Of a stretch of 24,717 nt of DNA, positions 1,725 to 24,717 are shown piece by piece. This DNA comes from a virus. Lineage: Duplodnaviria; Caudoviricetes. The notes beneath the pieces are model-generated. The model was not told the origin of the DNA and did no database searches. It worked only from the letters and a program-made list of their open reading frames with translations. The DNA lies in the IMG/VR virus record IMGVR_UViG_3300033405_000945, positions 1 to 24,717 of that record. One strand, 5' to 3'. Position 1 is the stretch's first letter. Each line of letters opens with the position of its first letter. A program made the position numbers and the translations under genes.

Positions 1725-2651
1725 ATGAACTGGATGACGAAACTGGCGATTTTGTTCGGACGAAAACAGTTTGAAGACTTTGCCCAGGCCAATCCCCAAC
1801 TGCCCGATGACGCGCTCGCGGTTGCGAACACGCTCGATACGTACCCCACACGTGGCGCCGCCGCGCTGATCGCCGGCTCGCTGGCCCACGCGGTCGATAA
1901 CGTCCTGCGCGGGACCGAGACCGTCGGGCAACTCGCCACGCATCTGCTCTTGGTGCTGACGGCGCTGTGCATCATCTGGGTCCGCCACGCCATCAGCAAA
2001 CATGATGTGCGGGTGAACGCGGCGGTGCAGTCGGCTCGTCAGGTGTCCGGCATTTCCAGCACCGTGACAACGCTGATGATCCTCTTCGCGCCCTTCGTGT
2101 TCTTCGTGGTGAGTCCACTGAATTGTGGGGCAGGCGGCCCGCCTGCCGATTCCCCAACGACGGCAACCGGGCCGGTTGCCCTACAAACCGGCACGACGAA
2201 CGGCTCGGCCGCTCCAACGACCGCAACCGGGACGGTCGCGCTACCAAACAACGTCACCAACGCCACGGCGCTGTTCACCGAGCTCGTCTCCGATTTTGGC
2301 AGTGTCACCAAATTCAGCAGCGGCGTCGGCGTCAATCTCCACGGCAAGATCGCGCCGCTGCTGTCCCAGGAACTTTCGCTCTTCGGGCACTCAACCACCA
2401 ACTCCTCGTGGTCGACCGGGCCGTCCCACGCGACGTTTTTCCTGCCGGCCGCCAACGAGGAACAGGTCGGCTGGTCGTTCAGCGGCAGTTGGAACTCTCC
2501 GCCCAGAATCCTCCGCTTCGCCCTGTTCAATGCGAGCGACATCGATTGGACGGTCAACTGGGGTCTGCCCGTCGAGGATTACTACCGGGTGTTTCGCCAT
2601 ATCGATTGGCGCGAGAACCGTCTCGGCGTGTCCATCACCCGGAAATTCTAG
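1725..2651 (+). CDS. Membrane protein at the lysis-gene position: two hydrophobic segments, Thr/Ala/Pro linker, beta-rich C-terminus
   Basis: ATG 1725 with SD GGGAG. Hydrophobic LLLVLTALCIIWV and LMILFAPFVFFVV. Ends RLGVSITRKF. Confidence 0.7.
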   Translation: MNWMTKLAILFGRKQFEDFAQANPQLPDDALAVANTLDTYPTRGAAALIAGSLAHAVDNVLRGTETVGQLATHLLLVLTALCIIWVRHAISKHDVRVNAAVQSARQVSGISSTVTTLMILFAPFVFFVVSPLNCGAGGPPADSPTTATGPVALQTGTTNGSAAPTTATGTVALPNNVTNATALFTELVSDFGSVTKFSSGVGVNLHGKIAPLLSQELSLFGHSTTNSSWSTGPSHATFFLPAANEEQVGWSFSGSWNSPPRILRFALFNASDIDWTVNWGLPVEDYYRVFRHIDWRENRLGVSITRKF

Positions 2652-2663
2652 GGAGGCAATTCC

Positions 2664-2804
2664 ATGACACTTGCAACAAGAACTTCTGAACCCACCCCTG
2701 GCCCCTCCCAAGAGGGGAACAAACAATCCGGTCTCCCCTCCTCTGGAGGGGCTGGGGGTGGGTCTGGCTTAACGATGAAGGGTGGGCTTTGGGACAACCT
2801 ATGA
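2664..2804 (+). CDS. REP-derived coupling mini-ORF (46 aa)
   Basis: SD GGAGG 2652-2656 and ATG 2664. Reads through the REP pair; its TGA overlaps the next ATG (ATGA 2801-2804). Confidence 0.45.
   Translation: MTLATRTSEPTPGPSQEGNKQSGLPSSGGAGGGSGLTMKGGLWDNL
2689..2763. repeat. Inverted pair of REP-like family A elements (ACCCACCCC-n-CCCCTCC-nn-GGAGGGG)
   Basis: AACCCACCCCTGGCCCCTCCCAAGAGGGGAA ... TCCCCTCCTCTGGAGGGGCTGGGGGTGGGT. Confidence 0.9.
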
Positions 2805-3163
2805 ACGATCATGGAATCAACTGGACCGGCGTGCTGGCGATCATCGCGCTGCTGGAATTCTTCCGCAGCCTGGTGATCTATGTCTTTATCAGTCCCCTGC
2901 GCGGCGCGGGCAAGAAAATCGACCATCTCGAATGCCAGATCAACGGACTGAATTTCGCCCACCTGCAAAAGAGCGTCGAGGACCACGAGTGCCGCGTGCG
3001 CGAACTCGAACGCGATGCGATGCCGGTCGATGATTTTCGCCGTTACACCGACACGTCCGAACGCGACCGCCGCCTGGTGAACAAGAAACTCGACATCCTG
3101 CTGCAGCGCACCGCGCAACTGCGCGACCCGGCCGATGAAAGGGAACTGAGTGATGAAAACTGA
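2801..3163 (+). CDS. Mu gp25-like (DUF2730-type) single-TM coiled-coil protein
   Basis: N-terminal TM (WTGVLAIIALLEFFRSLVIYVFI), then coiled coil HECRVRELE...VNKKLDILL. Lies just before the gp26- and gp27-like genes. Confidence 0.6.
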   Translation: MNDHGINWTGVLAIIALLEFFRSLVIYVFISPLRGAGKKIDHLECQINGLNFAHLQKSVEDHECRVRELERDAMPVDDFRRYTDTSERDRRLVNKKLDILLQRTAQLRDPADERELSDEN

Positions 3164-3164
3164 A

Positions 3165-3241
3165 ACCCCTCTCTTTATTTCTCTCCCGGCGGGAGAGATC
3201 AAAACCGGATTTCCCCTCCACCGGAGGGGCCGGGGGTGGGT
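3165..3241. repeat. Family A REP-like pair
   Basis: Hairpin TCTCTCCCGGCGGGAGAGA followed by TTCCCCTCCACCGGAGGGGCCGGGGGTGGGT. Confidence 0.85.
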
Positions 3242-3247
3242 GACCCG

Positions 3248-3523
3248 ATGAACCCTGAACAACTCCGCGACCTGCGGGTCGTGATCCTGCAATACCTCTA
3301 CCGCGCCAAACCCCTGGGCCGTCGCGCCACCGTGATCCATCAGATCGTCCGCCAGGAGGTCGATTGCGAACTGTCCGATGTCGCCGCCCAACTCGCGTTC
3401 CTCCAGGGCAACAACTTCATCTGCGCGGTCAAAGCCGACAGCCTGTCCCCCGGCCTCCCGCCGTTCTGGTTTATTACGACGGCCGGCATGGTCGAATGCG
3501 AGGAGAAACATCTTGTCCCGTAA
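3248..3523 (+). CDS. Mu gp26-like winged-helix protein
   Basis: LRVVILQYL...VAAQLAFLQGNNFI...WFITTAG pattern, ~91 aa, immediately upstream of the gp27-like gene. Confidence 0.7.
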   Translation: MNPEQLRDLRVVILQYLYRAKPLGRRATVIHQIVRQEVDCELSDVAAQLAFLQGNNFICAVKADSLSPGLPPFWFITTAGMVECEEKHLVP

Positions 3524-3532
3524 TTTCCAAAC

Positions 3533-3921: not shown

Positions 3922-4554
3922 ATGCTGCGTAGACCCAAAGGCAAGATCTCCATGCTCCCGGAGAACGTGCGAGATCAGATCAATGACAAGATCCGCAACG
4001 GCTGGCAGTACCGCACCATTCGCGACTGGTTGTTTGCCCAACGCGCCGAGCAGGACATCCCGGATCTGCAACTGAAGGCGGGTGACCTCTATGCCCTGGT
4101 CTGGTCACGCGATGCAAAGACGAAGCGGTCGATGCAATGCACCTGCCTCAACGCCCTCAGCGATTGGTATCGAACCCATTACCGCAGCTGGCTCAAGGAC
4201 CAGCTCTCCTTTGACCGCGCCCTCCGCCTCGTCGAGGAAAACGAACAGCTCAGTAGCCTCGCCAGCGACAAGGCCCAACCAGACTCCAATCTCGGCGGCA
4301 CCCTCATCGTCCGCTCCTTATTGATGGACGCCATCCGCGCCCTCTGCGAAGACGAAGAGGCCGCTAATCCCGCCCAACTGGCGCGCCTCGCCAATGCCTG
4401 GGCCCGCATGAGCGACACCGGCCTGCGCGGCCAGCAATCCCTCGACGCCGGCCTCCAGTCCCTGCGCGACGAAATCAAATCCAACCCCAACGCCCTCGAG
4501 CACTTCAACAAACTCTACGCCACGCTGAAACACCCCAGCCAAAAGAAGTCATGA
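3922..4554 (+). CDS. Mu gp27-like (DUF3486) putative small terminase
   Basis: N-terminal KGKISMLPENVRDQINDKIRNGWQYRTIRDWL pattern. ATGA overlap with the large terminase. Confidence 0.75.
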   Translation: MLRRPKGKISMLPENVRDQINDKIRNGWQYRTIRDWLFAQRAEQDIPDLQLKAGDLYALVWSRDAKTKRSMQCTCLNALSDWYRTHYRSWLKDQLSFDRALRLVEENEQLSSLASDKAQPDSNLGGTLIVRSLLMDAIRALCEDEEAANPAQLARLANAWARMSDTGLRGQQSLDAGLQSLRDEIKSNPNALEHFNKLYATLKHPSQKKS

Positions 4555-7082
4555 CCCGCGTCGCTGAAGAACTCAAACAAGGCCTCGACGGCAGCCTCTC
4601 CTGCAAAGTCGCGACGCCATCGGTCCGCTCGTTCCGCGAGTTTTTGGAGAAGCATGCCCGCGTGAAGACGCCGGATGGAAGCTATGCGGCGTACACGTTT
4701 GCGGGACGGGAGGCGCTGGAATTTGTGGTGGGGATTATTGACCGGGTGTTGGCGAATGGCGACGGCCACGAACCCACCCCTGTATCCCCTCCGAGGAGGG
4801 GACCCAACCCGAACGTGTTCTCCATGCATTCATCCCCTCCGAGGAGGGGAACGGATCCGCACTCGAATTCCATGCATTCATCCCCTCCGAGGAGGGGAAC
4901 GGATCCGCACTCGAATTCCATGCATTTATCCCCTCCACCGGAGGGGATCAAAGGGGTGGGTCATCCGATCTCCGACGCACGCCTCACCGCGACGGGGAGT
5001 GCGCAATGGGGCAAGCCGAGTGCGGCACTAGCCGCACGAGACGGCGCGATGTCGTCTTCGCGCCAAACCATCCATGATTGCCCCATCAGCGATGCCCGGC
5101 TCACCGCCACCGGCTCGGCGCAGTGGGGCAAAACCATCCTCGAACTCAATCTGCTCGCGTATCTGACCGGCCTGCAATTTCGTTCGGTCGGTTTGTTCCT
5201 GCCCGATGAAGACCTCGTCGAAGGCGTGGTCGATTCCAAGTTTCGGCCCGACGTGCTCGACCAGCTTCCCTGGCTCAACTCGCTGATCACGCTCGGCAAA
5301 GCCGAGAACGCCTCGGGCAAGACGGTCAACCGCAAAGGCCTGTTCACCTGCACCGATGGCCGGAAACGGTCACACGGGATGATTCACGGGATGCAGAAGA
5401 TCCCGACGACGTTCAGCTTCGACGTGGTGATCGAGGACGAGAAGGACGACATCCCGCCGAGCATGTCGCGGTATCTGACGGCGCGCATGACCGCCAGCGA
5501 TCTGCGGTTCCGCTTGAGCATCGGCACACAACGCTACGCCGGCGCGGGGCAGAACAAGGAGTTCGAGGCCGGCACGATGCATACGGGAGTGTTTGAGTGC
5601 CCAAATCCCAAGTGCCTATACAAACAGAATCCGGAAGAGAACTGGCCGGGGATCTGCCGACTGGCCGTGGATGGCGCGCCGCGAACGGATGATCCGCAGC
5701 TTACCTTGGAAGGGAACTTCCGCTGCGCCGGCTGTAGCCGCCCCGCTCTGTCGGGGCGCATCCCCGACACGGCGACAGAGCGCCGTGGCTACAGCGAAAC
5801 GGGCGTCTTCGACTTCTCTCCCGATGCCCATTTCTACCTCGCCTGTGTCCGGTGCGGCGCGGAACTGAATCGGCACGTGCCGGAGTTCATCCCGCAACAT
5901 CCGGAGCGGGAGAAACTGCATCACTGGTCGGTCCGCATCTCGCAGCTGCTGGTCGCGGCGATCTCGTTGAAGCAAATCGTCTCCGACTGGTGCCACAACG
6001 CGGTGAAAGACCCCGACGCGATGAAGACGTTTTACGTCGACCGCCTCGGCCTGCCGCGGAGCGCGACGCAACAGATTGACCAGAAGATACTGGACCGCGC
6101 GAGAAGTGTGGAAACGTTCGATCTGTCGCTGACGCCGCGCCCCGGCACGGTGCGGTATGCCGGGCTGGACACGGGAGACAGATGCTGGCTCACCGTCCGC
6201 GAATGTGATGGTGTAGTAGCGGCCGTCTCGGCCGCCTCCGCGCCGAGCGGCACAGGCGTCTCGCCTGTAGCCTCCGGTCGTTCTAAACGCATCGTGTGGC
6301 TGGAGCAGCTCAGTGCCGAGCGCGTCCGGTCGCGCGTGCCGCAGATTTTCGAGACGATGGGCATCGCGACGTTGTTTGTGGATGCGGGCCCGCTGCGCGA
6401 TCTCGCGCGCGATTTGTGTTTTCTGCTGAATGGGCTTAACGGCGCGGACGCGCGGCAGCGCGTCTCTCCAAACGACGCGGAGAAAGCGGTCATCCATTTT
6501 CCCGGCGGTCTCGTTTGGGACGGGAGAAGCCAGCAATGGCGCGGATTGCGTTGCGCCGCGGTCGAGTTCTCGCTGAAAACCGGCAAAGGCATCCAGCACA
6601 AGCTCGGCATCACGCAGGACGGACTGTTTTACCCGATCATCGCCTGTAATCGGGACGAGACCATCGAGCGCGTCGTCAATGAATTACTGACGGCCAGCGA
6701 GGGTGTGATTGAGGTGGTTGAAACCGCAGGGCATAACCCACCCCTGTATCCCCTCCGAGGAGGGGAACGAAGGTTGCGGACGGAACCGGCGATTCGACTG
6801 CCCGCGCGCACGGCGGGTTCACCGAAGATTATCGAGACGTTCGACGCGCATGTGATTGCCGGGAGCCGCCGCGACCGCGACGCGGACGGCAACGCCGAGC
6901 ATTTCGTCGACGGTTGCGAAAATCATTTTCTGCTGAGCAACGCCTACAGCGCGCTGGCGGAATCGGTCGGCGAACACGTCGTTCCGCCGGTGTCGGGCGC
7001 GATGGACCCCGATACCGCGGTGACATCGAGCCACACCATGAACCGATTCGGGCGACACACTTTGGCCAGGAGACCCTGGTGA
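4551..7082 (+). CDS. terL: Terminase large subunit (lambda GpA-like) with six in-frame repeat insertions
   Basis: Walker A GSAQWGKT, Walker B VVIEDEKDD, Cys pairs CPNPKC and CVRC, nuclease YAGLDTG, LFVDAGP, ENHFLLS. Confidence 0.9.
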   Translation: MTRVAEELKQGLDGSLSCKVATPSVRSFREFLEKHARVKTPDGSYAAYTFAGREALEFVVGIIDRVLANGDGHEPTPVSPPRRGPNPNVFSMHSSPPRRGTDPHSNSMHSSPPRRGTDPHSNSMHLSPPPEGIKGVGHPISDARLTATGSAQWGKPSAALAARDGAMSSSRQTIHDCPISDARLTATGSAQWGKTILELNLLAYLTGLQFRSVGLFLPDEDLVEGVVDSKFRPDVLDQLPWLNSLITLGKAENASGKTVNRKGLFTCTDGRKRSHGMIHGMQKIPTTFSFDVVIEDEKDDIPPSMSRYLTARMTASDLRFRLSIGTQRYAGAGQNKEFEAGTMHTGVFECPNPKCLYKQNPEENWPGICRLAVDGAPRTDDPQLTLEGNFRCAGCSRPALSGRIPDTATERRGYSETGVFDFSPDAHFYLACVRCGAELNRHVPEFIPQHPEREKLHHWSVRISQLLVAAISLKQIVSDWCHNAVKDPDAMKTFYVDRLGLPRSATQQIDQKILDRARSVETFDLSLTPRPGTVRYAGLDTGDRCWLTVRECDGVVAAVSAASAPSGTGVSPVASGRSKRIVWLEQLSAERVRSRVPQIFETMGIATLFVDAGPLRDLARDLCFLLNGLNGADARQRVSPNDAEKAVIHFPGGLVWDGRSQQWRGLRCAAVEFSLKTGKGIQHKLGITQDGLFYPIIACNRDETIERVVNELLTASEGVIEVVETAGHNPPLYPLRGGERRLRTEPAIRLPARTAGSPKIIETFDAHVIAGSRRDRDADGNAEHFVDGCENHFLLSNAYSALAESVGEHVVPPVSGAMDPDTAVTSSHTMNRFGRHTLARRPW
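4771..4961. repeat. In-frame array of four family A hairpins with 48-bp period, inside terL
   Basis: ATCCCCTCC at 4784, 4832, 4880 and 4928, bounded by AACCCACCCC and GGGGTGGGT. Encodes repeats of SPPRRGTDPHSNSMHS. Confidence 0.95.
4965..5132 (+). repeat. Duplicated 17-codon Walker A segment separated by a structured AGCCGAG element
   Basis: PISDARLTATGSAQWGK encoded at 4965-5015 and 5082-5132. Two-hairpin element at about 5014-5066. Confidence 0.95.
5731..5795. repeat. In-frame GTAG-type REP doublet in terL
   Basis: GCTGTAGCC...GGCTACAGC inverted ends; near-identical to intergenic 3570-3629. Encodes CSRPALSGRIPDTATERRGYS. Confidence 0.95.
6213..6268. repeat. Two in-frame REP-like hairpins in terL
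   Basis: GTAGTAGCGGCCGTCTCGGCCGC and GGCACAGGCGTCTCGCCTGT share a GTCTC loop region. Confidence 0.7.
6446..6469. repeat. In-frame REP-like hairpin in terL
   Basis: GGACGCGCGGCAGCGCGTCTCTCC, same architecture as intergenic 7597-7622. Confidence 0.65.
6735..6767. repeat. In-frame family A element in terL
   Basis: 32 nt identical to 4771-4802 but read in a different frame (NPPLYPLRGG). Confidence 0.95.
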
Positions 7083-7117: not shown

Positions 7118-7582
7118 ATGAAGAAGTTACTATCGACAACACTGATCGCAGCAATCGTAGCGTTCGCGGCCTACGTACCGAGCGCGCGGGCGCAGGCGAT
7201 CTTCGTGCCGGGCTACGACGTGCCTTCGACCATCGCCACGAACGCCTTCGTCGTTAATGGCACCAACGGCATGCTCGTCACGCCCCTGGTCATTACCAGC
7301 AGCACCAACGGCGCGACGGTGACGGTTGTCACCAACACCGCGAACTCGAACCGCGTTTTCCTGGACGTCATCCAACAGGGCACCAACGCCTGCGACGTGA
7401 TTTACGATCAGGCCGCGACGACCAACAGCATCGGCGATTACCTCGGCGGCGCGGTCGGCGCGACGTGGACCACCAAACGCCCCGCGCTCTACAAGGGACC
7501 CGTCACGCTCATCCTGCATTCCCACGCTCCGAACCAGGCCACGACCGTCTGGACCATCGAAGGCAGCACGGGCGGCCTCTAA
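7118..7582 (+). CDS. Signal-peptide-bearing small beta-sandwich protein (154 aa)
   Basis: SD GGAGG, ATG 7118. MKKLLSTTLIAAIVAFAAYVPSARA-Q signal peptide; Thr/Asn-rich mature part. Confidence 0.8.
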   Translation: MKKLLSTTLIAAIVAFAAYVPSARAQAIFVPGYDVPSTIATNAFVVNGTNGMLVTPLVITSSTNGATVTVVTNTANSNRVFLDVIQQGTNACDVIYDQAATTNSIGDYLGGAVGATWTTKRPALYKGPVTLILHSHAPNQATTVWTIEGSTGGL

Positions 7583-7635: not shown

Positions 7636-9408
7636 ATGGCCACATTGCTTCAACGCGGATGGAACCGGCTGCGCGGCGCGGCCAGCGACATCACGTCGTA
7701 TTTGAAGTCCCCGGCGGATTCGACGCGCGGCCTGATCTTCTTCGGCGAGAGTAATCTGGTGGATCCAGATGCGGCTCGCCGGGAGGCTCGCCCTCCAAAG
7801 CCCGGCACGTTGATCAAAGCGCAGGTGGCCGAGCGCTGGATCAACCAGGTCACGCGCGGGCTGACGCCCGAAGCGATTGACGACTATCTCATGTCGGCCA
7901 TCAGCGGCGACACACTCAACCAGTTTGCGATGTTTGAGGAGATGGAAGAGAAATGGCCGGAGCTCCGGCTCGCGCTCTACAAACACAAACTCAAGGCCGC
8001 GCGCCGCAACCCGCGCATCGTCCCGCCCGATCATCCGCAACATCCCGCGCTCGCCCGCGAGAAAGCCGAGTTCGCGAACCACGTGTTTGCCGGCATCCGC
8101 CACTGGCACCGCACCGCGTTCAACCTTCTGGATGCGGTCGGCAAAGGCATCAGCGCCGCCGAGATCGACTGGCAAATCACGGATATGCCGGCACCCACCC
8201 CCGGCCCCTCCCGTGGAGGGGAGCGCCGGTTGCGACAGGCCGTCGTCATTGCCGAAATGCCCTGGGTGAATTACCGGCACTGGAGTTATTGGTGGGACAA
8301 ACCCGAGTTGCAGGTGTTCCCCGATCTGCGCAACCGCGGCCTGCACTTCGAGATCCCCGACCGCAAGTTCGTCGTGTTCCAGCATCTGTCGAAAAGCGGC
8401 CACCCGGCGCGGGCGGCGATGCTGCGTCCGCTCGCGTGGTATTTCCTCATCTATCTGTTTGCGATGAAGGACTGGGGCACGCTCGCCGAGACGTTCGGGG
8501 TCGATATCGCCCACGCGTTTTGCAGCAAGGACGCCACGCAGGAGCAGCGCAACACGATCCTGCTCCATCTCTCGCGGCTGGCCGCGCGGGCGGGCGTGTT
8601 CGACGAAGGCACGGCGATCAATCTCCAGCGTGCCGCCAGCGCCAGTTCGTTCCCGCAGGAAACCATCGTCAAATATTGCTCCGAGAAAGCGCTCGAATGT
8701 CTCCTCGGCGCGACGCTCGCCACCCAGGCCGGCGAACACGGCGCCCGCTCGCTCGGCCTCGTCCAGCAGGATGAGACGGAGGAATTGGTCGATTGGACCT
8801 GCCTGCTGTTTGCCGGGACGATGACCGGCACCGCGTTGCGCTGGTTGATGGAGTTCAACTTCGCCGAGCCCGGCGACAATCCCGTGATGGAATTGCCCGG
8901 CGCCAACCGCCGCGATCTGGCCGCGCTGGCCAACGTCCTCAACCTGCTCGTCAACCTCGGCGTCCGCGTGCCGGAGGCCTGGGTCCACGCCCAATTCGAT
9001 ATTCCGCATCCGCAGCCGCTCGATCTGGTGGACGGCGCGACCCCCGGTGAGCCGAAACTCGAACGCATCCTCACCCCGAACCAGAACGGCCCGGCCGACC
9101 TCATGCGCACAGACACATTCGGCAATCCGCTTACCGCCGCCCAAGCCCAGCGCGCCCTCGACGCCATCCGTCTCCGCGCCATGGCCGAGGGCTACGACCT
9201 GCGCGCGTTTGATCAGCTTGCCACGCCGATTGAAACGCTCATCGCAGGTAAAAGATCCCCGGCCGATGCGCTCCACGAACTCAAAACAGCAGCCGACGCT
9301 CTTGCGCCCGCCCAACTCGACGGCCTCGCGCCGCAACTTCTTATCCTCGGCGACCTGCTCGCTCGCAACGAATTCACTTCGCCCAATTCCGGAGACCACC
9401 ATGACTGA
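7636..9408 (+). CDS. Portal protein, Mu gp29 / DUF935 family
   Basis: FEEMEEKW, LLDAVGKGISAAEIDW, MLRPLAWYFL...KDWGTLAETFG, LLGATLAT, ARSLGLVQ motifs, plus synteny. Confidence 0.9.
   Translation: MATLLQRGWNRLRGAASDITSYLKSPADSTRGLIFFGESNLVDPDAARREARPPKPGTLIKAQVAERWINQVTRGLTPEAIDDYLMSAISGDTLNQFAMFEEMEEKWPELRLALYKHKLKAARRNPRIVPPDHPQHPALAREKAEFANHVFAGIRHWHRTAFNLLDAVGKGISAAEIDWQITDMPAPTPGPSRGGERRLRQAVVIAEMPWVNYRHWSYWWDKPELQVFPDLRNRGLHFEIPDRKFVVFQHLSKSGHPARAAMLRPLAWYFLIYLFAMKDWGTLAETFGVDIAHAFCSKDATQEQRNTILLHLSRLAARAGVFDEGTAINLQRAASASSFPQETIVKYCSEKALECLLGATLATQAGEHGARSLGLVQQDETEELVDWTCLLFAGTMTGTALRWLMEFNFAEPGDNPVMELPGANRRDLAALANVLNLLVNLGVRVPEAWVHAQFDIPHPQPLDLVDGATPGEPKLERILTPNQNGPADLMRTDTFGNPLTAAQAQRALDAIRLRAMAEGYDLRAFDQLATPIETLIAGKRSPADALHELKTAADALAPAQLDGLAPQLLILGDLLARNEFTSPNSGDHHD
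8193..8222. repeat. In-frame family A element in the portal gene
   Basis: ACCCACCCCCGGCCCCTCCCGTGGAGGGGA, just after the EIDW motif. Confidence 0.9.
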
Positions 9409-12798: not shown

Positions 12799-12809
12799 CA
12801 CACATGACC

Positions 12810-15396: not shown

Positions 15397-15620
15397 CCGA
15401 TTATGAACTCCAGGACGCTTTCGACGCCGCATTCAAAAATTGGCAGCACGGCCTGGTCGAAGCCGCCTTTTACACCGGCCTGCCATGGGTAACCAAACCG
15501 CGCGACTGGAAAAAATACTGCGATGAACTTCATAACGCCATCGAAGGCCGCACGACCGCAAATACTGCCGAACGCCTCCTCGGCAGCTTTCTCCGGCAAG
15601 GCGTGCCCCTCTCACATTGA
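15297..15620 (+). CDS. Tail assembly chaperone gpT-like segment (-1 frameshift product, or GTG start at 15336)
   Basis: The -1 frame is open to 15620 (EFLRARGHRVDELTDYEL...). A8 run at 15296-15303. Confidence 0.55.
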   Translation, partial: KKSHGRGPGEPPIVVVADATEFLRARGHRVDELTDYELQDAFDAAFKNWQHGLVEAAFYTGLPWVTKPRDWKKYCDELHNAIEGRTTANTAERLLGSFLRQGVPLSH

Positions 15621-16669: not shown

Positions 16670-17952
16670 TTGCCGGACTTACAATTCTGCCGTTTCGGGC
16701 GAACTGGAAGGACGGAGTCCAGTTGCGGTCCTCGTTTGCGACGAACATTTTCCAGTCGACGGCCGGATCACAGACGCGATTCTCGCAGCGGGATTACGGC
16801 CGGCGACAGATCCGGTTTCGGTTGTTGCCCTACCATGATTTTCGGCGGCAATGGGATGCGTTCCGCGAAGTGAATCCGCCGGGGACGCTGCTCGGTGTTC
16901 CGCTGTGGAGCGAGCAAGGGATCGTGTTGACGGCAGCCGCGGCGAGCGGGGCGACGACGCTGACGGTGAACAATGCGGCGGACATCGACTGGCGCGGGTT
17001 GGGGGTTTTGATATCGGCGACGCCAACAACGGCAAGCGGGACGCTCGCCCTACAAGTTGAAGGGTTCAACATCCAGAGCATTTCGGGCAACACGATCACG
17101 CTGGCGGCTGGATTGACCAACGCGTTCAATGCCGGTGATGAAGTGTTGCCGCTGATGTTGGGGCATCAGCTCGCGGATTACGCCGACGACTTTATCACGC
17201 CCGAGATCAGCGACGTGGAACTGACGTTCGATGAGAACCTGAACGACCTCGGTAGCGTGAGCTTCGCAACGCCACCGACATATCCGACGTACCTCGGGCT
17301 GCCCGTGCTGCCGCTGATCGCCGAATGGAGCACGACGCCGAAAGGCAAGATCACACAGAACGCGCACTATCTCGTGCAAGGGCTCAACGCCGAATCGATC
17401 GGGATTGTCCAGGCATACGTGCGGCAGGGGATCGCGCAGCGCGTGGGCATGGCGTGCCGGGCGGACCGGGCATTGCTCTGGCAATTCTTTCACGATCGGG
17501 AGGGACGCTGGGATCGGTTCTGGTTGCCGGCGCTGAAGGATGAACTGAAACTGGCGGCGAACGTTTCTGCCAGCGACACGACGCTGGAACTGGAAAACTA
17601 CGCGCTGTTTGCCGAGCGGTACGGGCTCGGCGCGGACCTGCGGATGGCCATCTTCCTCACGGACGGCTTCAACTGGTGGACGCGCCAGGTCATCAATCTC
17701 TCCGGCGGCACGAACCGGGTGACGATCGACGCGGCGCTCGGCACGGCGCTCAATATGAATGCCTGCCAGATCGGGATGCTGACGTTCGTGCAGTTCGCCG
17801 CGGATGATTTGGTGGTGGACCTGCAGGCGCCCGTGGTCGGCACGGCCACGCTGGCCTTCACGGAACTCGAAAAGGAATACGCCGAAGTGATCGCGGCCGG
17901 CAGTGGCGACGCCAGCGGCACGCGCGTTGGACAGGAATTGGTGGCGGGATGA
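16666..17952 (+). CDS. Distal tail / tail-tip protein
   Basis: PFRANW N-terminus and LWQFFHDREGRWDRFWLP motif; ATGA-coupled to the TMP. Confidence 0.7.
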   Translation: MIAGLTILPFRANWKDGVQLRSSFATNIFQSTAGSQTRFSQRDYGRRQIRFRLLPYHDFRRQWDAFREVNPPGTLLGVPLWSEQGIVLTAAAASGATTLTVNNAADIDWRGLGVLISATPTTASGTLALQVEGFNIQSISGNTITLAAGLTNAFNAGDEVLPLMLGHQLADYADDFITPEISDVELTFDENLNDLGSVSFATPPTYPTYLGLPVLPLIAEWSTTPKGKITQNAHYLVQGLNAESIGIVQAYVRQGIAQRVGMACRADRALLWQFFHDREGRWDRFWLPALKDELKLAANVSASDTTLELENYALFAERYGLGADLRMAIFLTDGFNWWTRQVINLSGGTNRVTIDAALGTALNMNACQIGMLTFVQFAADDLVVDLQAPVVGTATLAFTELEKEYAEVIAAGSGDASGTRVGQELVAG

Positions 17953-18035
17953 AAATGATGGACGCCCGACCCACCCCTTCCGCCTTGCTCCTTCCCCTCC
18001 TTGGAGGGGACGAAAGGGGTGGGTTGCCCACATGA
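17949..18035 (+). CDS. REP-derived coupling mini-ORF (28 aa)
   Basis: MKMMDARPTPSALLLPLLGGDERGGLPT. ATGA overlaps at both ends; spans family A element 17969-18024. Confidence 0.45.
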   Translation: MKMMDARPTPSALLLPLLGGDERGGLPT

Positions 18036-19780
18036 GAACGGTTCCCCTGGCCTGGACGGCACTGGAGACGGCGCGGCAGCAGAAGGTGGCGCTGCTGTTC
18101 CATATCTGGATCTGCCGCGATGCGTACTCGGGCGGGTTGACGGCGGGCAAGGTGACGCCGCCGGTCGGCTGGGGTTCGTGGACGTACTCGACCGGCTTCC
18201 AAGGCAACGTGACTTTCACCGACGTGGCCAACTACGCCCAGGACTGGCAGTCGGCGAATTCCGGCAACCCGATCACGCGGACGTACGCGCCCGCGGCCAT
18301 CGAGTGCGACGCGAGCCAGGTCTTTCGCAAGGAGGACACCACGCTGGACCCGCACGACATCACGCTGCAGGTCGATCCGTCGCTGGAGCCGTTCGCCGAT
18401 TACGTCAACCGGAGCTGGCCGCTGCGATTCGGGATCACGATCTACAAGGTCCACCGCAATGGCAATGCGGTCGCCACGGTCGATAACGGCAGCGGCACGC
18501 AGGTGCCCGTCGTGGACGTGCTGTTCGTCGGCTACCTGAATGCCGATGACACGCTGGAACTGAACTCGGCGGGGTTGGAATTGACGATCGATCCGTCGAC
18601 GGGTACGGGCGGGGCCAAGGCGAAGCTCACGACGCAATGGGACCACGTGTTCAAGAAACTGGACCGGCTCGTGCCGCGCCCGGTGTTTTCCATCCAGTGC
18701 CCGAAGATGGTGTACTCGACCGGGTTCGGCGCGGCGGTGGATTGCAATGCCGATATGCCGAGCAACCAGGTCACGGGCACGGTGGTCCAGATGAACGGCA
18801 TGGTCATCTCGGCGATCGAATGGGGCGCGCTGCCGAACGCGTTTTTCGCCCAGGGCATGATCGTCTACACCGCCATTGATCCCGTGAGCGGGCTGGAGTT
18901 TACGTTCACGTTCGACGTGGTGGCCAGCGCCCAACGCGGGTCGAGTCCGACGTACGGTGACCTGCAGATCATGGGCGTGATCGGGACGCCGCCGCTGGTG
19001 ACGATCGGGACGATTGTCCAGGCATACAAGGGCTGCAACCGGAACCGCAACGACGGCACGACGAACAGTTGCATGATCGGGTTTATCCCGGCGGGGTCGC
19101 AAACGGCGTCGGAAGCGTGGAGTTCCGCGGCGGCGTATGTGCCCGGGAACATCGTAAACTACGGCGGCTCCGTTTATCTCTGCCTGGTCGCGAACACGAA
19201 CGTCGCGCCAACAACGCTGGCGCCGGACTGGGAACTCACGTTCACGCCCGGGACGTTGCGCGTGTCGCTGCAGTTGTTCCAAACGCCGAGCGGCGGCAGC
19301 AACGAACAGAACCCCACGGGCTGTTACGTCTACATCACCGCGACCGAACTGTGGATTGTCTACTATCGCGACAATCCGAACCAGATCGGCAACATCACCA
19401 TCGGGGTGGCCAATGGCGGGTCGGGCACGCCGTTCGATTCCACGAGCACGCCGGCGCTGGCGTGGACGGTGAACGGCGGCACCATCGTGTCCAATCAGTT
19501 CCCGCTGGCCAACGCGTCGGCGTCGGGTCCGCCGGCCCAGGCCGGCTACAAGATCACGCTCAGCAACAGCGGCGCGACGGCGGATATCCACCAGCAACCG
19601 ACCGCATGCAATGGCTACGTGGCGATCATCCATTGCAGCGGCGGCTCGCCTGCCAATTTCGATTTCACGGTGGGCTGGGTCGATAGCGGCGGCACACCGG
19701 TGACGATCGGCAACCTGGAGAATTTCGGGGGCGCGGACATCCCGATCGAGCACCCGAGTTTGGAGACGGCAAATCAATGA
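18032..19780 (+). CDS. Baseplate hub-like protein (DUF2163/BR0599 type) with an inserted carbohydrate-binding module
   Basis: Four Cys (QCPKMVY...DC; YKGCN...SC) and terminal NLENFGG..IP. ATG 18032 taken as the start because the upstream in-frame stretch is REP-derived. Confidence 0.7.
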   Translation: MRTVPLAWTALETARQQKVALLFHIWICRDAYSGGLTAGKVTPPVGWGSWTYSTGFQGNVTFTDVANYAQDWQSANSGNPITRTYAPAAIECDASQVFRKEDTTLDPHDITLQVDPSLEPFADYVNRSWPLRFGITIYKVHRNGNAVATVDNGSGTQVPVVDVLFVGYLNADDTLELNSAGLELTIDPSTGTGGAKAKLTTQWDHVFKKLDRLVPRPVFSIQCPKMVYSTGFGAAVDCNADMPSNQVTGTVVQMNGMVISAIEWGALPNAFFAQGMIVYTAIDPVSGLEFTFTFDVVASAQRGSSPTYGDLQIMGVIGTPPLVTIGTIVQAYKGCNRNRNDGTTNSCMIGFIPAGSQTASEAWSSAAAYVPGNIVNYGGSVYLCLVANTNVAPTTLAPDWELTFTPGTLRVSLQLFQTPSGGSNEQNPTGCYVYITATELWIVYYRDNPNQIGNITIGVANGGSGTPFDSTSTPALAWTVNGGTIVSNQFPLANASASGPPAQAGYKITLSNSGATADIHQQPTACNGYVAIIHCSGGSPANFDFTVGWVDSGGTPVTIGNLENFGGADIPIEHPSLETANQ

Positions 19781-20424
19781 GGCCAGAACTTCACATTGAT
19801 ACCCACCCCTCATTCCCCTCCAGGGAGGGGACGCAAGGGGTGGGTAATCGCCTTCCATACTTCCACACGTCCGAGCGGGTGGCGGCACTCAAGGACCAGC
19901 TCGCGAAATGGCAGACGACCCGGTGGCGGCATTCGGGCACGCACCCGAACGAGATGCGGTGCGGGATCTCGGGGGATTGCCTGTTCTGGGTGGTCGCGTT
20001 CAAGGCGATCGGGGCGCTGCCGTCGCACCTGGTGATTCCCGATTACCGCAAGATGGAAGCGGCGGGGGACAAGATGGCGTTGTTGCGGCTGCGGATCATG
20101 GAGACGGGCCGGGCGGAGTTGGTCATGGAAGAACCCGCCCCTGTTTCCCCTCCTGGGAGGGGACCGAAGGGGTGGGTGCCGATGGCCGGCGACGTCCTCC
20201 TGTTCCGCAACGGGATGTCGGGCGTGCACTGCGGCCTGGTGGTCCGGCCCGCGCCGATGCATTTCTTTCACCTGAGCCAGAACGGCGCACTCGAAGAACC
20301 GTTCAATCAGTCGCACTGGCTGGCGAGCCTGGCGTTCGTGTACCGGCTGATGGACGAGGAACCCACCCCTTCCGCTTCGCTCCTTCCCCTCCAGGGAGGG
20401 GATAGAGAGGTGGGTGTCGCATGA
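19777..20424 (+). CDS. NlpC/P60-family tail peptidase with three in-frame family A elements
   Basis: WRH...GDC and HCG...FFH catalytic pattern. Repeats at 19801-19845, 20133-20177 and 20361-20415. ATGA overlaps at both ends. Confidence 0.8.
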   Translation: MRPELHIDTHPSFPSREGTQGVGNRLPYFHTSERVAALKDQLAKWQTTRWRHSGTHPNEMRCGISGDCLFWVVAFKAIGALPSHLVIPDYRKMEAAGDKMALLRLRIMETGRAELVMEEPAPVSPPGRGPKGWVPMAGDVLLFRNGMSGVHCGLVVRPAPMHFFHLSQNGALEEPFNQSHWLASLAFVYRLMDEEPTPSASLLPLQGGDREVGVA

Positions 20425-23400
20425 GCCTTTTAGCCGCACCCTCCACACCGGCCAATGCATCGCGGCGGATGGCGAACTCGTCGCGGATCGCGTCGAACAT
20501 CCTCGGCACGCCGGTCCCGGTGCTATGGGGGACGCGGGACCTCTCGGGCACGCTGGTGGCGTGGACGAACCTGTCGTACAACTCAGGCGGATCATCAGGC
20601 AAAGGCGGTGGCGTGGTGTCGGCGGGCGACCGCTACTACCGGACATTCGCGCTGTGTTTCTGCCTCGGGCCGTGCGACACGATCAACTCGATCTGGTACG
20701 ACAACCAGATGATCTGGCAGGGGCCGGTGTCGATCGCATCGGCGCTGGCGACGGCCAACGCCATCCAGGGCGCGGGCTCGGTGATGCTCACGGACAATCC
20801 GCCGACGACGTCGACGCCGGGCATCAGCCCGATCCCGGTCAACAACAATCGCGGCACGATCTGTTTCTATTTCGGCACGGACACGCAAACGCAGGACCCG
20901 TTCCTCGCGCAATTCATTCCCAACGCCCCGTTCTTTCGCGGGATGGTCTATGCGGTGTTCCACGGTCCGCGAACCGTCTCCAGCGGCAAGTACTCGCAAC
21001 AAGGCTTCCGCATCGGCAGCGCCGATACGCTCGCCCAGATCGCGATCAATGTGACCCGGATTCCGCCGGAGCCGACAGGCTCGGTGTTCTCCGTCGCCAC
21101 CACGCCGGCCCCCGCGCAAATCGTCACCTGCGCGGCGCGGATCTCCGGCGTTTGGGACCGCGGCCCCGCTGCGACTCTTACCGTAACGGCCGGCGCTGAC
21201 GATGGCCACCTCTCTGTAACGGCGTCCTCGGCCAGTGGCGATACGGCGGTCTCGCAGGCGGCCAACGGCGTGGAATTTCAGGCGCTGCCTTACTTCTACG
21301 TCACGCTGACATGGCCATCGAGCTCGCAGCCGGTGCTCCCTTCCGGGGTGACGATCGGGTTCAACCTGGCGATCAACGGGACGACCATCACCAAGATTGT
21401 GTCGAGCCCGACACTCGCGCTCGATGTGAGCATTGCCGGATGGAGCGGAAGACAGAACGTGCTGTACCAGATCACGGTCACGCCGGGCATCGATGACACC
21501 GCGGTGAACGTCGAAACGGCCGTAATCGCCGGCGTCGACACGGTCGGGGGATCGTACCCATTGAACGGCGTGGCCTTCGCGGTCGGGACGCTCGGGTTGA
21601 TGGTCACGCTCTCGTGGCAGACCGGCACGATCCCGCTCGCCGCAGGGCAATCGGCCAGTTTCGAGATCGTTGTGAGCGCCAACGCCGCCGCCGGCAACCT
21701 CGGCGCCAATCCGGGCGCGATGGTCTATGAGTTGTTGACGTCCACCGTCGCCGGGTTCGCGCTGAACCCGGCCATCATCGATGAGACGCAGTTTGGCGCG
21801 TTCGCCGGGCAGGCCAACTATGCCGGGCTGAATTACATGACGACCGAGAAAGCCGATGCGCGCGGCTTGATCCAGGACATCTTGAAGAACGTCCAGGCGG
21901 CGTTGACGATATCGAACGGGCTCATCGCGCCGCGGATGATGGGCTATCTGCCGGGGACCTTGACGACGATCGCGCAGACCCTGGACGCCGACGACGTGAT
22001 CGGTTACAAGATCCGTCCGGGCGCGTGGTACGAACTCCCGCAACACCTGTCGGTCAAGTACCGCGATTCGGGCCGGCTGTTTCGCGACACGGTCTGTTCG
22101 CTGCCCGGCGCCGGCAGCGTGGGCAACGATGAGAAGGCCATCGAGATCGATCTGCCGATGGTGACGGACCTGCTCACGGCTCGCGTGATCGGGTTGCGGA
22201 TGATGGCGCTGGAGCAGTTGCCGAAGAAGCCAGATACGCTCATTTGCGGACGCGGGGCGTTCCCGATCCAGTTCGGCGACATCATCGCCCTCAACAATCC
22301 GCGGATCGGCACGTTGCCGGCCTCATTTAATTATCAGCCCGGCAGTCCGCTCGTGGTGCTGGCCGTGCGCGAACACGGTCCCGGTGACGAAACGATCGAG
22401 CTGGATGTCGCGCCCGACGTGTTCGGGTATCTGCCGGTGAATTCCACGGCCACCGGCGGCGGAGGCGGCGGTATCCCGGCCGGGCCGGCGGAGCCGTATT
22501 ACGCGATCTCGGTCCAGGGCGCATTCGAGTTCCCGTACGACTGGGACCCGTCCGTCAGCCGGTTGTTCTGCCTGTTCGCGGCCAGAACCGATCCCGATGC
22601 GCAAGGGTTCACGCTCTGGGCCTCGGATGAAAATCCGCCCGTGGATTACTCCGAACGCGATACCGACGCGCTGTTCTGCGCGGGTGGCACGATCCAGGGG
22701 TTCAATGCGCCGCGGTTCACGATGGACCGCACCGCGACGATTCAATTCACCGCGGCGAGCCAGGACATCGATGCCTGGCAGAGCGTGTCCGACACCGGCT
22801 GGTTCGGTTATCAATTTCTCGTGCTGCTGGGCGGCAGTGGGCTGGCGCTGCTCTACGCCGCAAAGAACCTCAATTACCTCGGTGACAACCAGTGGGAGAT
22901 CGAGGGACTGTGGGGACCGCTCAGCGACACGATCGGCGGGACGGTGGGAACCGACGTCTGGGTGTTCGCCCTGCAGCCGCCCTACGACGTGCCGGCGCAG
23001 CCCAGCGAGGTCATCGGCGTCACGATCAGTTTCAAGGGCATACCGTTTGGCAGCCGATTGAGCCCGACGCTGTCCGCGGCGACGGCGGCGCCGGTGACCG
23101 TCGCCGGCCGCTCGGCTTGTCCGCGCGCACCGGTCAATCCCAACGCGAACGGCCGCGGCGCGAACATGTTCCCCTCCTACGGAGGGGCAGGGGTGGGTAA
23201 TGACATCGCACTCGCGTGGGACCTGTGCAATCGCGGGTTCGGTTTTGGACAGGAGACGAACCCGTGCGAGTTCGATCCGGGCATCCAGAGTGAGGTTGCG
23301 CAATGCCAGGTGGACGTCGTGGTCGGGGGCACGGTGGTCAAGACGTACACCGTCAGCACGCGCGAGTTTGGCGGCACGGGCATCACATCAGGCACCATCA

Positions 23401-23732
23401 CGGCGCAGACGTTTCCCATATCGAGCACCGCGACCCTGCAGCCCGGCGACCGCATCAGTGTCGTGCGCGCCGCCGATCCCGCCGGCACGGAGTGGTTCGG
23501 ACGCGTCGCCACGATCAGCGGCAACCAGGTCACGCTCGTCAGCCCGTTGTGCGTCATCCCGAGCGCCGGCGATACCTTCAACCGCTACGAGTCCTGCGGG
23601 TTCGTTTACACCGCCGCGCAGAACCTGGCTGACAACGGCTCGCTCCCGTCCGCGATCACGTTCAACATCTACGGCTACCTGAACGGCCTGCGTTCCCTGC
23701 AGCCGGCAACCATTACGGTGACAAAAACATGA
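20421..23732 (+). CDS. Large tail-tip / host-specificity protein (J-like, GTA megatron-like)
   Basis: GTPVPVLWGT, PFFRGMVYAVF, ANPGAMVYELLT, ELPQHLSVKYRD motifs. In-frame family A element at 23169-23198. Confidence 0.8.
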   Translation: MSLLAAPSTPANASRRMANSSRIASNILGTPVPVLWGTRDLSGTLVAWTNLSYNSGGSSGKGGGVVSAGDRYYRTFALCFCLGPCDTINSIWYDNQMIWQGPVSIASALATANAIQGAGSVMLTDNPPTTSTPGISPIPVNNNRGTICFYFGTDTQTQDPFLAQFIPNAPFFRGMVYAVFHGPRTVSSGKYSQQGFRIGSADTLAQIAINVTRIPPEPTGSVFSVATTPAPAQIVTCAARISGVWDRGPAATLTVTAGADDGHLSVTASSASGDTAVSQAANGVEFQALPYFYVTLTWPSSSQPVLPSGVTIGFNLAINGTTITKIVSSPTLALDVSIAGWSGRQNVLYQITVTPGIDDTAVNVETAVIAGVDTVGGSYPLNGVAFAVGTLGLMVTLSWQTGTIPLAAGQSASFEIVVSANAAAGNLGANPGAMVYELLTSTVAGFALNPAIIDETQFGAFAGQANYAGLNYMTTEKADARGLIQDILKNVQAALTISNGLIAPRMMGYLPGTLTTIAQTLDADDVIGYKIRPGAWYELPQHLSVKYRDSGRLFRDTVCSLPGAGSVGNDEKAIEIDLPMVTDLLTARVIGLRMMALEQLPKKPDTLICGRGAFPIQFGDIIALNNPRIGTLPASFNYQPGSPLVVLAVREHGPGDETIELDVAPDVFGYLPVNSTATGGGGGGIPAGPAEPYYAISVQGAFEFPYDWDPSVSRLFCLFAARTDPDAQGFTLWASDENPPVDYSERDTDALFCAGGTIQGFNAPRFTMDRTATIQFTAASQDIDAWQSVSDTGWFGYQFLVLLGGSGLALLYAAKNLNYLGDNQWEIEGLWGPLSDTIGGTVGTDVWVFALQPPYDVPAQPSEVIGVTISFKGIPFGSRLSPTLSAATAAPVTVAGRSACPRAPVNPNANGRGANMFPSYGGAGVGNDIALAWDLCNRGFGFGQETNPCEFDPGIQSEVAQCQVDVVVGGTVVKTYTVSTREFGGTGITSGTITAQTFPISSTATLQPGDRISVVRAADPAGTEWFGRVATISGNQVTLVSPLCVIPSAGDTFNRYESCGFVYTAAQNLADNGSLPSAITFNIYGYLNGLRSLQPATITVTKT

Positions 23733-23748
23733 ACACGAATTTCCACGC

Positions 23749-23806
23749 TGTAGCCGCGGGCTTTAGCCCGCGTTCGACGGCGCGCACCTTAAAAGGTGCG
23801 GCTACA
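23749..23806. repeat. GTAG-type REP doublet
   Basis: TGTAGCCGCGGGCTTTAGCCCGCG ... CGCACCTTAAAAGGTGCGGCTACA. Confidence 0.9.
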
Positions 23807-23826
23807 AACCGCATGAGGAGCCCGGC

Positions 23827-24048
23827 ATGAGCACACTCATCAATGGCACCGAAGCCGAGCGCCGCAACGGCGCGAGACGCGGCCACGTCGTATCCCCGGC
23901 CGCAAACGCAGTCCGAGGTGATCAATGAGCACTCTTGTAAATGGCACCGAAGCCGAGCGCCGCAACGGCGCAAGACGCGGCCACGTCGTATCCCCGGCCG
24001 CAAACGCAGTCCGAGGTGATCAATGAGTACTCTTGTAAATGGCACCGA
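23827..24048 (+). repeat. 98-bp tandem duplication: gene start plus AGCCGAG structured element plus SD
   Basis: Units begin at 23827, 23925 and 24023. The third copy continues as the intact gene. Confidence 0.95.
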
Positions 24049-24466
24049 GGACCTGGTCGGGCAAAACCTGACGCCGGCCGCGGCGTATGCGGTGGTGAAC
24101 ACCGCGCTGCAGAAGATCGCCCAGATGCAGGTGTATCCGCAGGACTGCCGATTCCCCGGCTCGGCCCACGCGAATGATATTCGCGACCCGCACGCGATCC
24201 CGTTCCAGCGCCAGCTCGTGCAGGCGGAGATCATCGTCAATGGCGATGCGCCGAGCGGCGGCTCGCTGGTGGTGCAGCTGTTGTTCGGCGGCGTGGCGCA
24301 GACACCCACGCTAAGCCTGAACGCGGGCCAAACCTACGTGTTGATCAATCTATCGAGCGACAATCTGGTCGTCGCCGCCAGCCAGGCGTGCGCGGTGGAA
24401 ATCGTCACCCCGAGCGGGGCGAGCGATGTGGTAGTGAAACTCCTCTTCCAATTGGTGATCCCATGA
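24023..24466 (+). CDS. Hypothetical tail-associated beta-rich protein (147 aa)
   Basis: SD GAGGTGATC upstream; ATGA-coupled to the next gene. Confidence 0.7.
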   Translation: MSTLVNGTEDLVGQNLTPAAAYAVVNTALQKIAQMQVYPQDCRFPGSAHANDIRDPHAIPFQRQLVQAEIIVNGDAPSGGSLVVQLLFGGVAQTPTLSLNAGQTYVLINLSSDNLVVAASQACAVEIVTPSGASDVVVKLLFQLVIP

Positions 24467-24717
24467 AACGCATCCTGATTCTCTGTTTGCTGTTTGTCAT
24501 CCCGAGCTTGTCGAGGGATCTCTTCGCCGCGAATGATTACAACTGGCGGATCATCGTCGCGCCGCAGACAGGCGACGTCGAGCAGGTTGTGCTCGATCCG
24601 TCGCAATGGTCGCTGACGCTGACGAATTTCCCGACCGGCGTGCGCCGGGCCACGCTGGAATTCACCGGCTCGGGCGGCAGCTACACGCAAACGGTGGTAC
24701 AGGCGGCGGGATCGGGC
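24463..24717 (+). CDS. Signal-peptide-bearing protein at the tail fibre position (partial, runs off window)
   Basis: MKRILILCLLFVIPSLSRDLFA-ANDYNW..., open for 85 codons to the window end. GTCA-type REP at 24495-24522 lies inside the signal peptide. Confidence 0.7.
   Translation, partial: MKRILILCLLFVIPSLSRDLFAANDYNWRIIVAPQTGDVEQVVLDPSQWSLTLTNFPTGVRRATLEFTGSGGSYTQTVVQAAGSG

Follow-up and report, generated by a model that had tools for sequence, protein, structure and literature searches.

Gene content of the cluster and its upstream element

The DNA analysed here (the window) is a whole virus record of 24,717 nt, IMGVR_UViG_3300033405_000945, and it carries, from position 1725 to its right end, a head-tail gene cluster that a first-pass annotation had proposed to be a domesticated, Mu-derived gene transfer agent (GTA). 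At the level of sequence, the comparisons described below demonstrate an immobile, vertically inherited, and selected head-tail-packaging operon of Mu descent, and we consider it probable, with moderate confidence, that the cluster is a domesticated particle operon with GTA-like transfer of host DNA, that is, a candidate GTA. From 1725 to the window end there are 23 open reading frames (ORFs), all intact and on the plus strand (to which all gene coordinates below refer unless stated), with intergenic gaps of -16 to 398 nt. Profile scans of 24 window ORFs gave no match to a repressor, transposase, replication, or endolysin protein, in agreement with the earlier view that no repressor, MuA, MuB, replication, or endolysin gene was recognisable. 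The description of the operon as uninterrupted and located behind a host-type gene holds, but it is not complete, since the record truncates the cluster inside the first fibre-region gene (24463..24717; 851 aa in genome G001), which has a signal-peptide-like N-terminus. In relatives, 2-3 more genes lie beyond the start of the fibre region, and the cluster spans ~23-30 kb.

The late genes include those expected of an active Mu prophage (Portal_Mu, Mu-like_Pro, Gp36, and Gp27-like). The small terminase TerS (3922..4554; 210 aa) is Mu gp27-like (phrog_426, 8e-6; Phage_Mu_Gp27, 3.5e-3) and represents a hypervariable allele. Its N-terminal helical domain aligns to residues 2-42 of phrog_426, and a structural model with pLDDT 82-98 over residues 1-100 places helices at 14-25 and 30-39, suggesting that TerS retains, at its N-terminus, a helix-turn-helix (HTH)-like domain with a putative role in DNA binding. 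A fold search with the model gave no PDB or BFVD match at E<=0.001 (the top BFVD row being a DUF3486 protein, E 0.63) and otherwise only generic helical bundles at Z<8. The large terminase TerL (4551..7082) is gpA-like and belongs to phrog_675 (2e-22), with weak GpA Pfam matches; assignment to the Mu gp28 type was rejected on this basis. It has no PDB sequence match, and comparison with 9 cultured phages gave matches of only 21-26%. The motifs that we take, from established terminase knowledge, to be Walker A, Walker B, coupling, and nuclease motifs are all intact, and they are invariant among relatives in which 25 distinct in-frame inserts of at least 6 aa occur in five loops of TerL (9 genomes). 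The window TerL itself bears repeat inserts, likewise in frame, within its loops. The Walker-A stretch is duplicated in frame in the window (4966-5130), and likewise in G002.

The head genes comprise a Mu gp29-type portal (7636..9408; Portal_Mu PF06074, 9e-54), 27% identical to the portals of JBD26/MP29, a Mu I-type protease/scaffold (9401..10783; Mu-like_Pro PF10123, 5e-4), a small head protein (10821..11186; phrog_673, 2e-7), and the major capsid protein (MCP; 11226..12245; phrog_1005, 7e-41; PDB 3bjq, 8e-7). MCP is the most conserved gene of the cluster (dN/dS 0.02-0.12); its predicted structure had a pLDDT of only 47, and the model was not used. The neck module (12316..14185) consists of a Mu gp36 adaptor (12316-12798; 2e-10), a neck protein (12979-13563; phrog_26), and a tail terminator (13652-14185).

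The tail tube protein (14197..14982; phrog_807, 7e-10; NF052337, 5e-14) is accompanied by no sheath gene in the operon, as judged by profile scans. It is followed by a tail assembly chaperone pair in overlapping frames (14992..15620), in which an A8 run at 15296-15303 may serve as a slippery, programmed frameshift site; both frames are conserved, and the run is A8 in 13/15 assemblies and A7 in 2. The tape measure (15650..16669; identified by a tape-measure profile match) is short, as stated earlier, with 339 aa in the window and 336-411 aa in 13/13 measured; at 0.15 nm per residue, 339 aa would correspond to a tail of ~50 nm. The tail tip is encoded by four genes (16666..23732), which are a distal-tail-like gene (16666-17952; phrog_1082), a hub-like gene (18032-19780; phrog_778), a Cys/His peptidase-like gene (19777-20424; phrog_1101) with the Cys and His kept in 10/10 sequences, and a Phage-tail_3 protein (20421-23732; PF13550). 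We presume the peptidase to be of the NlpC/P60 kind, a label with no profile match behind it. The N-terminus of the Phage-tail_3 protein gave a weak GTA_megatron match (1e-9), far below cut-off. In the G003 clade (L062/L045, L207, L208) a different tail-tip module occurs together with a 411-aa tape measure. Distal to the tip lies g147 (24023..24466; 147 aa), a conserved gene whose start is present as three 98-bp units through a tandem duplication (23827..24048). Head, neck, and packaging genes are all represented, and the tail is of a short, non-contractile type.

Of the genes without an assigned virion role, g1 (1725..2651; 308 aa) has a holin-like position, two predicted transmembrane (TM) helices, and weak beta-barrel features at its C-terminus; g2 (2801..3163; phrog_3999, 2e-4) combines a TM segment with a coiled coil; g3 (3248..3523; 91 aa) is a possible DNA-binding protein (phrog_436, 2e-3; weak Fur-like match, 0.017); and g6 (7118..7582; 154 aa), not found in G002 and G005, has a signal-peptide-like N-terminus according to a hydrophobicity heuristic. 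Atlas scores reached at most 0.85 for g1 and stayed under 0.9 for g6 and serve as leads only. Signal-peptide-like starts, unusual for virion proteins, are shared by g6 and the fibre-region proteins (L050, L055, L057, L047) and recur in the prophage of genome G046.

The left boundary of the cluster is marked by a promoter-like element (1627..1692, + strand) with three 9-bp direct repeats (1632-1657), TCACGG at 1664, a T tract, a 17-nt spacer, and TAATCT at 1687. It has a poor -35 and a good -10, did not occur in 100 shuffles, is kept in 11/12 aligned upstream regions with a variant in the 12th, and is present in 12/12 close metagenome loci. A sigma-70 scan called no plus-strand promoter at the element. 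Mu late promoters, according to the accessible part of PMC2582627, likewise have a -10 without a typical -35; the repeat of the window is direct, whereas the Mu C site is a dyad. These features suggest a putative activator-dependent promoter or TerS-binding site.

Transposable relatives and genomic setting

Genome G046, which lies outside the order of the carriers, holds late genes related to those of the window (57% identity in MCP, 53% in portal; the N-terminus of g1 is 37% identical to the first late gene) in a layout with CI (phrog_4) before the late genes and MuA (phrog_310, 5e-54) and MuB (phrog_296) further left. This transposable prophage is the nearest intact relative and supports the Mu descent that had been proposed. 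Genome G047 carries the same element with the repressor and with host genes in place of MuA/MuB, which it appears to have lost separately. Together with L233, the loci of G046 (L234/L230/L039) and G047 (L235) represent Mu-like prophages of an undescribed Verrucomicrobia type, whose early genes run leftward and whose terminase is of phrog_675. Of two further relatives, G019 shows an identical gene order and encodes a Terminase_6N-type TerL. In G007 the tape measure is 999 aa long, and the portal is followed by an additional gene of 402 aa, a candidate gpF-like gene by position that has no profile match. Used as a query, this gene matched only itself, so that no gpF-like gene was found after the portal of the window, and the idea of gpF remnants between portal and protease was rejected.

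Searches for a transposition machinery in the carriers were negative. With the G046 MuA as query, 0/47 order genomes matched. The phrog_310 profile detected its positive control, G046, and 13/18 genus genomes, in which the six strongest loci were insertion sequence (IS) or Tn7-like types when read; Mu-transpos_C matched in 3/18 genomes, always away from the cluster. Mor matched in 0/18 genus genomes, and no Mor/C activator gene was found; the Pfam models MuB_C and DDE_2 (0/5 genomes) were uninformative because no control matched either. Neither the order nor the viral contigs scanned yielded a close relative with a transposase. The missing endolysin, which had been taken as support for domestication, proved not to be diagnostic, since PHROGs recognised none among the first late genes of the intact G046 either.

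The proposed Verrucomicrobiota host was borne out by capsid relatives at 88-100% identity on contigs as long as 809 kb in metagenome-assembled genomes (MAGs) that bear the title Verrucomicrobiia; the carrier is a genus of uncultured peat and soil Verrucomicrobia. In counts that rest on MAGs, which are incomplete, the capsid profile matched 13/45 family genomes in a single copy each, 11 of them among the 18 genus MAGs; the portal matched 11/18 genus genomes and the terminase 10/47 order genomes, every one within the genus. Gene order was the same across the genus clusters. Seven genus MAGs had no capsid match (G039, G033, G034, G040, G045, G037, G042); in G039 both cluster ends sit at contig ends, and G037 and G042 had no cluster match and likewise lacked the landmark gene.

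To the left of the cluster, the window contains a host gene with T5SS/PEP-CTERM-associated repeats (1..1239, minus strand; TIGR04393, E 1e-14), for which a moron was rejected because the gene varies between relatives, and a 58-aa ORF (1330..1506, minus strand) that in relatives adjoins an IS1595 zinc-ribbon remnant, the neighbouring ORF there matching Zn_ribbon_IS1595 (Pfam). Over 17,079 nt, contig L223 matches the window at 100% identity; it continues upstream for 7 kb with host genes and an IS1595 remnant. No Mu early genes were found upstream in L223 or in the 10-35 kb flanks of G002-G005 and G035, where 61 chosen flank and distal ORFs were scanned with Pfam and the remainder by eye; these flanks contain housekeeping genes together with genes for secreted repeat proteins and fragments of IS. 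In contigs of run X2, one of four DNA runs covered, identical pieces lay at a depth of 9.6-12.9 over host gene and cluster, a contig depth that is no copy number.

The flanks also define the site. In one clade glmS/IS1595 lies upstream and desA-DUF2063-DUF692-DoxX downstream, whereas in G004, G035, and G044 the downstream genes are nrdJ or nrdJ-glnS. The two arrangements are linked by G003, which combines the downstream flank of the glmS/desA clade with the upstream flank (MORN, HTH_3, SRPBCC) of G004, G035, and G044. Similarity between relatives ends just upstream of the promoter element. Two independent integrations were rejected, as the flanks chain to one locus, and we infer from the flanking sequences one ancestral insertion that was probably followed by rearrangement. 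Orthologues of the cluster are syntenic, at a probably single ancestral site and with fixed gene order, as the first-pass annotation had suggested looking for. An ordinary active Mu-like prophage with its early genes beyond the window, which the filing of the window as a virus record and the layout of G046 might suggest, is highly improbable and already largely refuted, given the host genes that adjoin the cluster upstream in L223 and on either side in G002-G005 and G035, the single fixed copy, and the lack of a cognate transposase; MuA, MuB, and repressor genes linked to the late operon were not found, and the variable insertion sites and patchy spread typical of such prophages are replaced by chained flanks and a distribution that follows the host tree.

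The right flank of the glmS/desA clade (L050:6141-9078 and orthologues) contains a RiPP-type operon of the DUF692 (MbnB/TglH/ChrH) kind, in which a Cys-rich precursor is encoded along with DUF2063 and DoxX; DUF692 matched in 14/18 genus genomes.

Inheritance, selection, and losses

A tree of eight core genes was compared with a gyrB+secA host tree over 11 genomes. The two have 6/8 splits in common, an agreement attained in 3 of 100,000 label shuffles, and the phylogeny of the cluster is in this sense largely host-congruent. By module, agreement ranged from 6/8 down to 2/5 splits, the latter in the tail tip, while three neighbouring host genes used as a control had 4/7 splits in common with the host tree. 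Median core dS was 0.79 of host dS over 55 pairs, and the cluster persisted to a host dS near 1.

Selection was assessed with our own NG86 code on tblastn-aligned codons with inserts omitted, in six pairs with G001 used twice. Module dN/dS was 0.05-0.29 apart from a single value of 0.38 (0.11-0.98) that rests on few changes, confirming the expected low ratios; in the pair of the window and G001 the value was 0.10 (0.07-0.14) for the head and 0.17 for the tip. Head and terminase genes were constrained as strongly as tail genes.

The earlier count of more than 20 palindromic repeats without gene breakage was confirmed by 21 merged loci of host-type repeats (2169..24512), 13 of them in frame within genes and none breaking a frame, in a search with four patterns taken from the window sequence itself. 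The CCCCTCC-GGAGGGG type had 12 loci against a shuffle mean of 0.4, and the same repeats occur elsewhere in the G001 and G043 genomes, which marks them as host-type. The repeat load had been interpreted as a sign of long chromosomal residence. This was not sustained, and the repeats were rejected as a residence clock: they differ between near-identical strains, and such recent, lineage-specific insertions indicate tolerance of in-frame, frame-filtered insertion rather than age.

Several observations weigh against a conserved, functional GTA. Some concern inheritance and constraint. The AU test rejects an exchange of the core and host trees in both directions (p = 2.5e-4 and 6.5e-5; only 2,000 replicates), with the conflict confined to one four-species clade plus the tail tip, which agrees with the host tree in just 2/5 splits and is of a different type in G003. 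Module dN/dS is usually two to three times the gyrB/secA value (0.05-0.10), and the repeats are enriched in the cluster (4/12 exact A-type sites of G001), so that constraint is weaker than on housekeeping genes. Others concern integrity. Internal deletions are present in G033 (L238), G034 (L069), and G040 (L066); the otherwise cluster-carrying G041 (L236) has a g2::terS fusion that removes g3; and G045 has an empty cluster site. These losses or deletions in 5/16 informative genus genomes show that the cluster is dispensable. The chaperone run is A7 in place of A8 in G038, G041, and L213, possibly through decay, assembly error, or a phase switch, and frameshifts occur in G002, G003, G043, and G044, probably as assembly indels, because glmS is likewise split in G002. 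The remaining points concern transfer itself, namely that no activator or endolysin was identified for the cluster, that ~23-30 kb could fit a Mu-sized head, and that the window TerS has an HTH-like domain, whereas the small terminase of GTAs lacks an HTH or other DNA-binding domain according to the accessible parts of PMC6854486 and PMC11841831.

The deletions and losses, the slippery-site changes, and the heavy repeat load would fit a cryptic prophage remnant in slow decay, its low dN/dS left over from past function and no particles being made now. We regard this as improbable, since dN/dS is well under 1 in the closest pairs, 25/25 TerL inserts are in frame, and the cluster has persisted over the host divergence given above. 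The four independent deletions are all in-frame fusions, and three of them retain the promoter and the fibre-region genes while removing head and tail genes. This last pattern, which would suit distal genes with a use of their own, together with the signal-peptide-like N-termini of g6 and the fibre-region genes, is compatible with domesticated particles of another benefit (killing, phage decoys, or surface and biofilm appendages) in which DNA would serve only for head maturation. The evidence for domestication fits such particles equally well. We consider them unlikely nonetheless, because the intact prophage G046 has signal-peptide-like starts too, the head and terminase genes, needless for a tail-only weapon, are constrained like the tail genes, and profile scans recognised no sheath or toxin cargo gene. 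A tailocin, which has no head or packaging genes, does not correspond to a cluster in which both are present and constrained.

Candidate gene transfer and the specificity of packaging

In the accessible text of PMC9662315, GTAs are viriforms of caudoviricete-derived proteins that carry mostly random host DNA, are fully endogenized, cannot fully package their own locus, are inherited mostly vertically, and deliver DNA to other cells. In the cluster, profile matches identify caudoviricete proteins (portal, MCP, terminase, neck, tube, and tip; from genes alone), endogenization is apparent on the sequence side (host flanks, single copy, and flank ORFs that, where examined, included neither a transposase nor a repressor or integrase), and the 6/8 common splits point to vertical inheritance. 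Head size aside, every trait of the definition that sequence can address appears to be present, and the TerS type differs. The domestication part of the original proposal stood, through flanks in which no early genes were found, synteny, a largely host-like tree, and low dN/dS, and its GTA part is qualified by the HTH-like domain, which casts doubt on random packaging. Counting GTA-like transfer, non-transfer particles, and a helper-dependent element (below) together, we are highly confident that the cluster is domesticated and functional.

For the candidate GTA, we envisage a single prophage insertion in an ancestor, after which all sequence to the left of the late promoter was deleted. An activator would bind the 9-bp repeats and switch on one transcript. 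Heads would be filled by TerS and TerL with chromosomal DNA, given that the element can neither excise nor replicate and that ends were not recognised (without a systematic search). The resulting short-tailed particles would be released with the possible aid of g1 and g2 in lysis, find their recipient range through the variable tail tip and fibre-region proteins, and deliver host DNA to related cells. Owing to the HTH-like domain of TerS, packaging may start at preferred sites.

The cluster is neither a member of the RcGTA family nor an active Mu prophage. RcGTA-type GTAs are described as chromosomal, without replication genes, and mostly vertical in the portions available of PMC10883770 and PMC9662315, and RcGTA (Rhodobacter, Caulobacter; Rhodogtaviriformidae) resembles the cluster in its head-tail gene set, short tape measure, and four-gene tip ending in Phage-tail_3. 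The cluster differs in its Mu-type portal, protease, adaptor, and TerS, its phrog_675 TerL, its HTH-like TerS domain, its span, its phylum, its dispersed terS paralogues, and in being known from genes alone; in a profile comparison, no RcGTA equivalog reached cut-off on the window proteins, so that Rhodogtaviriformidae do not include it. Mu-like prophages (Mu, the Pseudomonas siphoviruses JBD26/MP29/JD024, and G046) share portal, I protease, gp36, gp27-like TerS, and late gene order with the cluster, which differs from Mu in that no MuA, MuB, repressor, Mor/C, or gpF was found and in its fixed site and non-gp28 terminase. GTAs have arisen repeatedly from different phages and are not findable by homology alone, as stated in the accessible parts of PMC11841831 and PMC12946183. 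BaGTA, VSH-1, Dd1, VTA, PBSX, and Faecalibacterium FpGTA are precedents for independent origins; the text available does not attribute any of them to Mu or to Verrucomicrobiota, and their putative TerS has no DNA-binding domain (PMC11841831), unlike that of the window.

A literature search whose coverage mostly excluded subscription papers and supplementary tables found no paper on a Mu-derived GTA or a Verrucomicrobiota cluster of this kind, consistent with the earlier statement that none was described in the phylum; to our knowledge, few GTAs are known outside Alphaproteobacteria. If true, the cluster would be a candidate for a new, Mu-phage-derived kind of GTA in an uncultured peat and soil lineage. 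The series from the intact transposable G046 through the transposase-less G047 and the fixed cluster to deletion scars and an empty site is unusually complete, so that phage domestication can be traced directly, step by step.

The two specificity modules, terS and tail tip, diverge faster than their neighbours. At fourfold sites, cluster terS differed by 0.47-0.62 in 5 pairs and the adjacent genes by ~0.1-0.3, with no elevation of terS in the pair G004-G035, and in a contig of run X1 terS is replaced by 738 other letters in an otherwise close strain. There were 54 match rows of terS-like sequences in 16/18 genomes, 10 of them in clusters, and the window terS is no closer to solo copies than to cluster copies. 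Among 20 solo terS loci chosen irrespective of the motif, 6 had the upstream element within 700 nt. Genome-wide matches to the element numbered 42 for G003, 6 for G035, 1-4 for each of six other genomes, and 0 for G042 and G045; the reversed 9-bp pattern gave the same counts and is invalid as a control, since reversal leaves the tandem repeat almost unchanged. In viral contigs the motif had 2 unrelated coding matches. Of 36 non-redundant element loci that we read, 6 lie before g1, 6 before solo terS-like genes, 3 before another ORF family, and 1 at a contig end, the rest being without a recognised gene. The late-promoter region of G046 is likewise repeated at more than 10 sites in its own genome, so that dispersal of the element may be a by-product of repeat spreading.

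Were the cluster to package in situ, from a locus that stays unexcised and through a TerS with sequence specificity, the directional transfer of lateral transduction would result. The resident pac-type prophages that act in lateral transduction are complete and inducible to lytic growth, whereas the window element can neither excise nor replicate. We tentatively entertain, as a possibility well short of likely, a domesticated form of this process in which headful packaging in induced cells would begin from numerous defined sites; the host would have kept a sequence-recognising TerS, would swap its alleles, and would have scattered co-regulated solo terS and element copies. Such programmable packaging, if true, would be intermediate to GTAs with random packaging and phages of the pac type. 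A testable handle on the loss or redirection of packaging specificity is offered by the TerS domain that was kept and by the dispersed promoter/terS cassettes.

The full-length TerS with its HTH-like domain, the terS allele swap in run X1, the tail-tip replacement in G003, and the failure to find an activator gene could also point to a helper-dependent, partly selfish element that stays silent without an activator from a related Mu-like phage, then packages its own locus and downstream chromosome from a pac site, as in lateral transduction, and swaps modules with circulating phages. For G001-G043, core dS was 0.20 versus 0.08 in host genes, as such an element would predict; the downstream neighbours, at a dS of 0.08, show no excess divergence. 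The deep tree follows the host, the flanks chain to one site, 0/13 genomes carry a second copy, and no close transposase-bearing relative was seen in the searches above, and we judge this explanation to be quite unlikely compared to a candidate GTA.

Other observations concern the dispersed packaging genes and element copies. At L232:4112-4903 a terS-like gene lies 3' of a related TerL with no portal after it, representing another dispersed packaging module. Upstream of position 2439 in L041, the G019 cluster, which has no early genes within 2.4 kb, ~11 inverted 9-bp repeats stand opposite 3-4 direct ones with an AT-rich core between them, in an iteron-origin-like arrangement, and these inverted arrays led us to consider the 9-bp repeats as replication-origin iterons. 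The second ORF family behind the element (L123:1825-2694, with the N-terminus ANRRNALKSTGPRT; L140; L148) had no NCBIfam or PHROG match. In G003, many element copies (e.g., L116, L124, L126, L128-L133, L138, L139, L141) are followed by a conserved ~230-nt tract in which no ORF was recognised and which may represent a small RNA or a mobile repeat.

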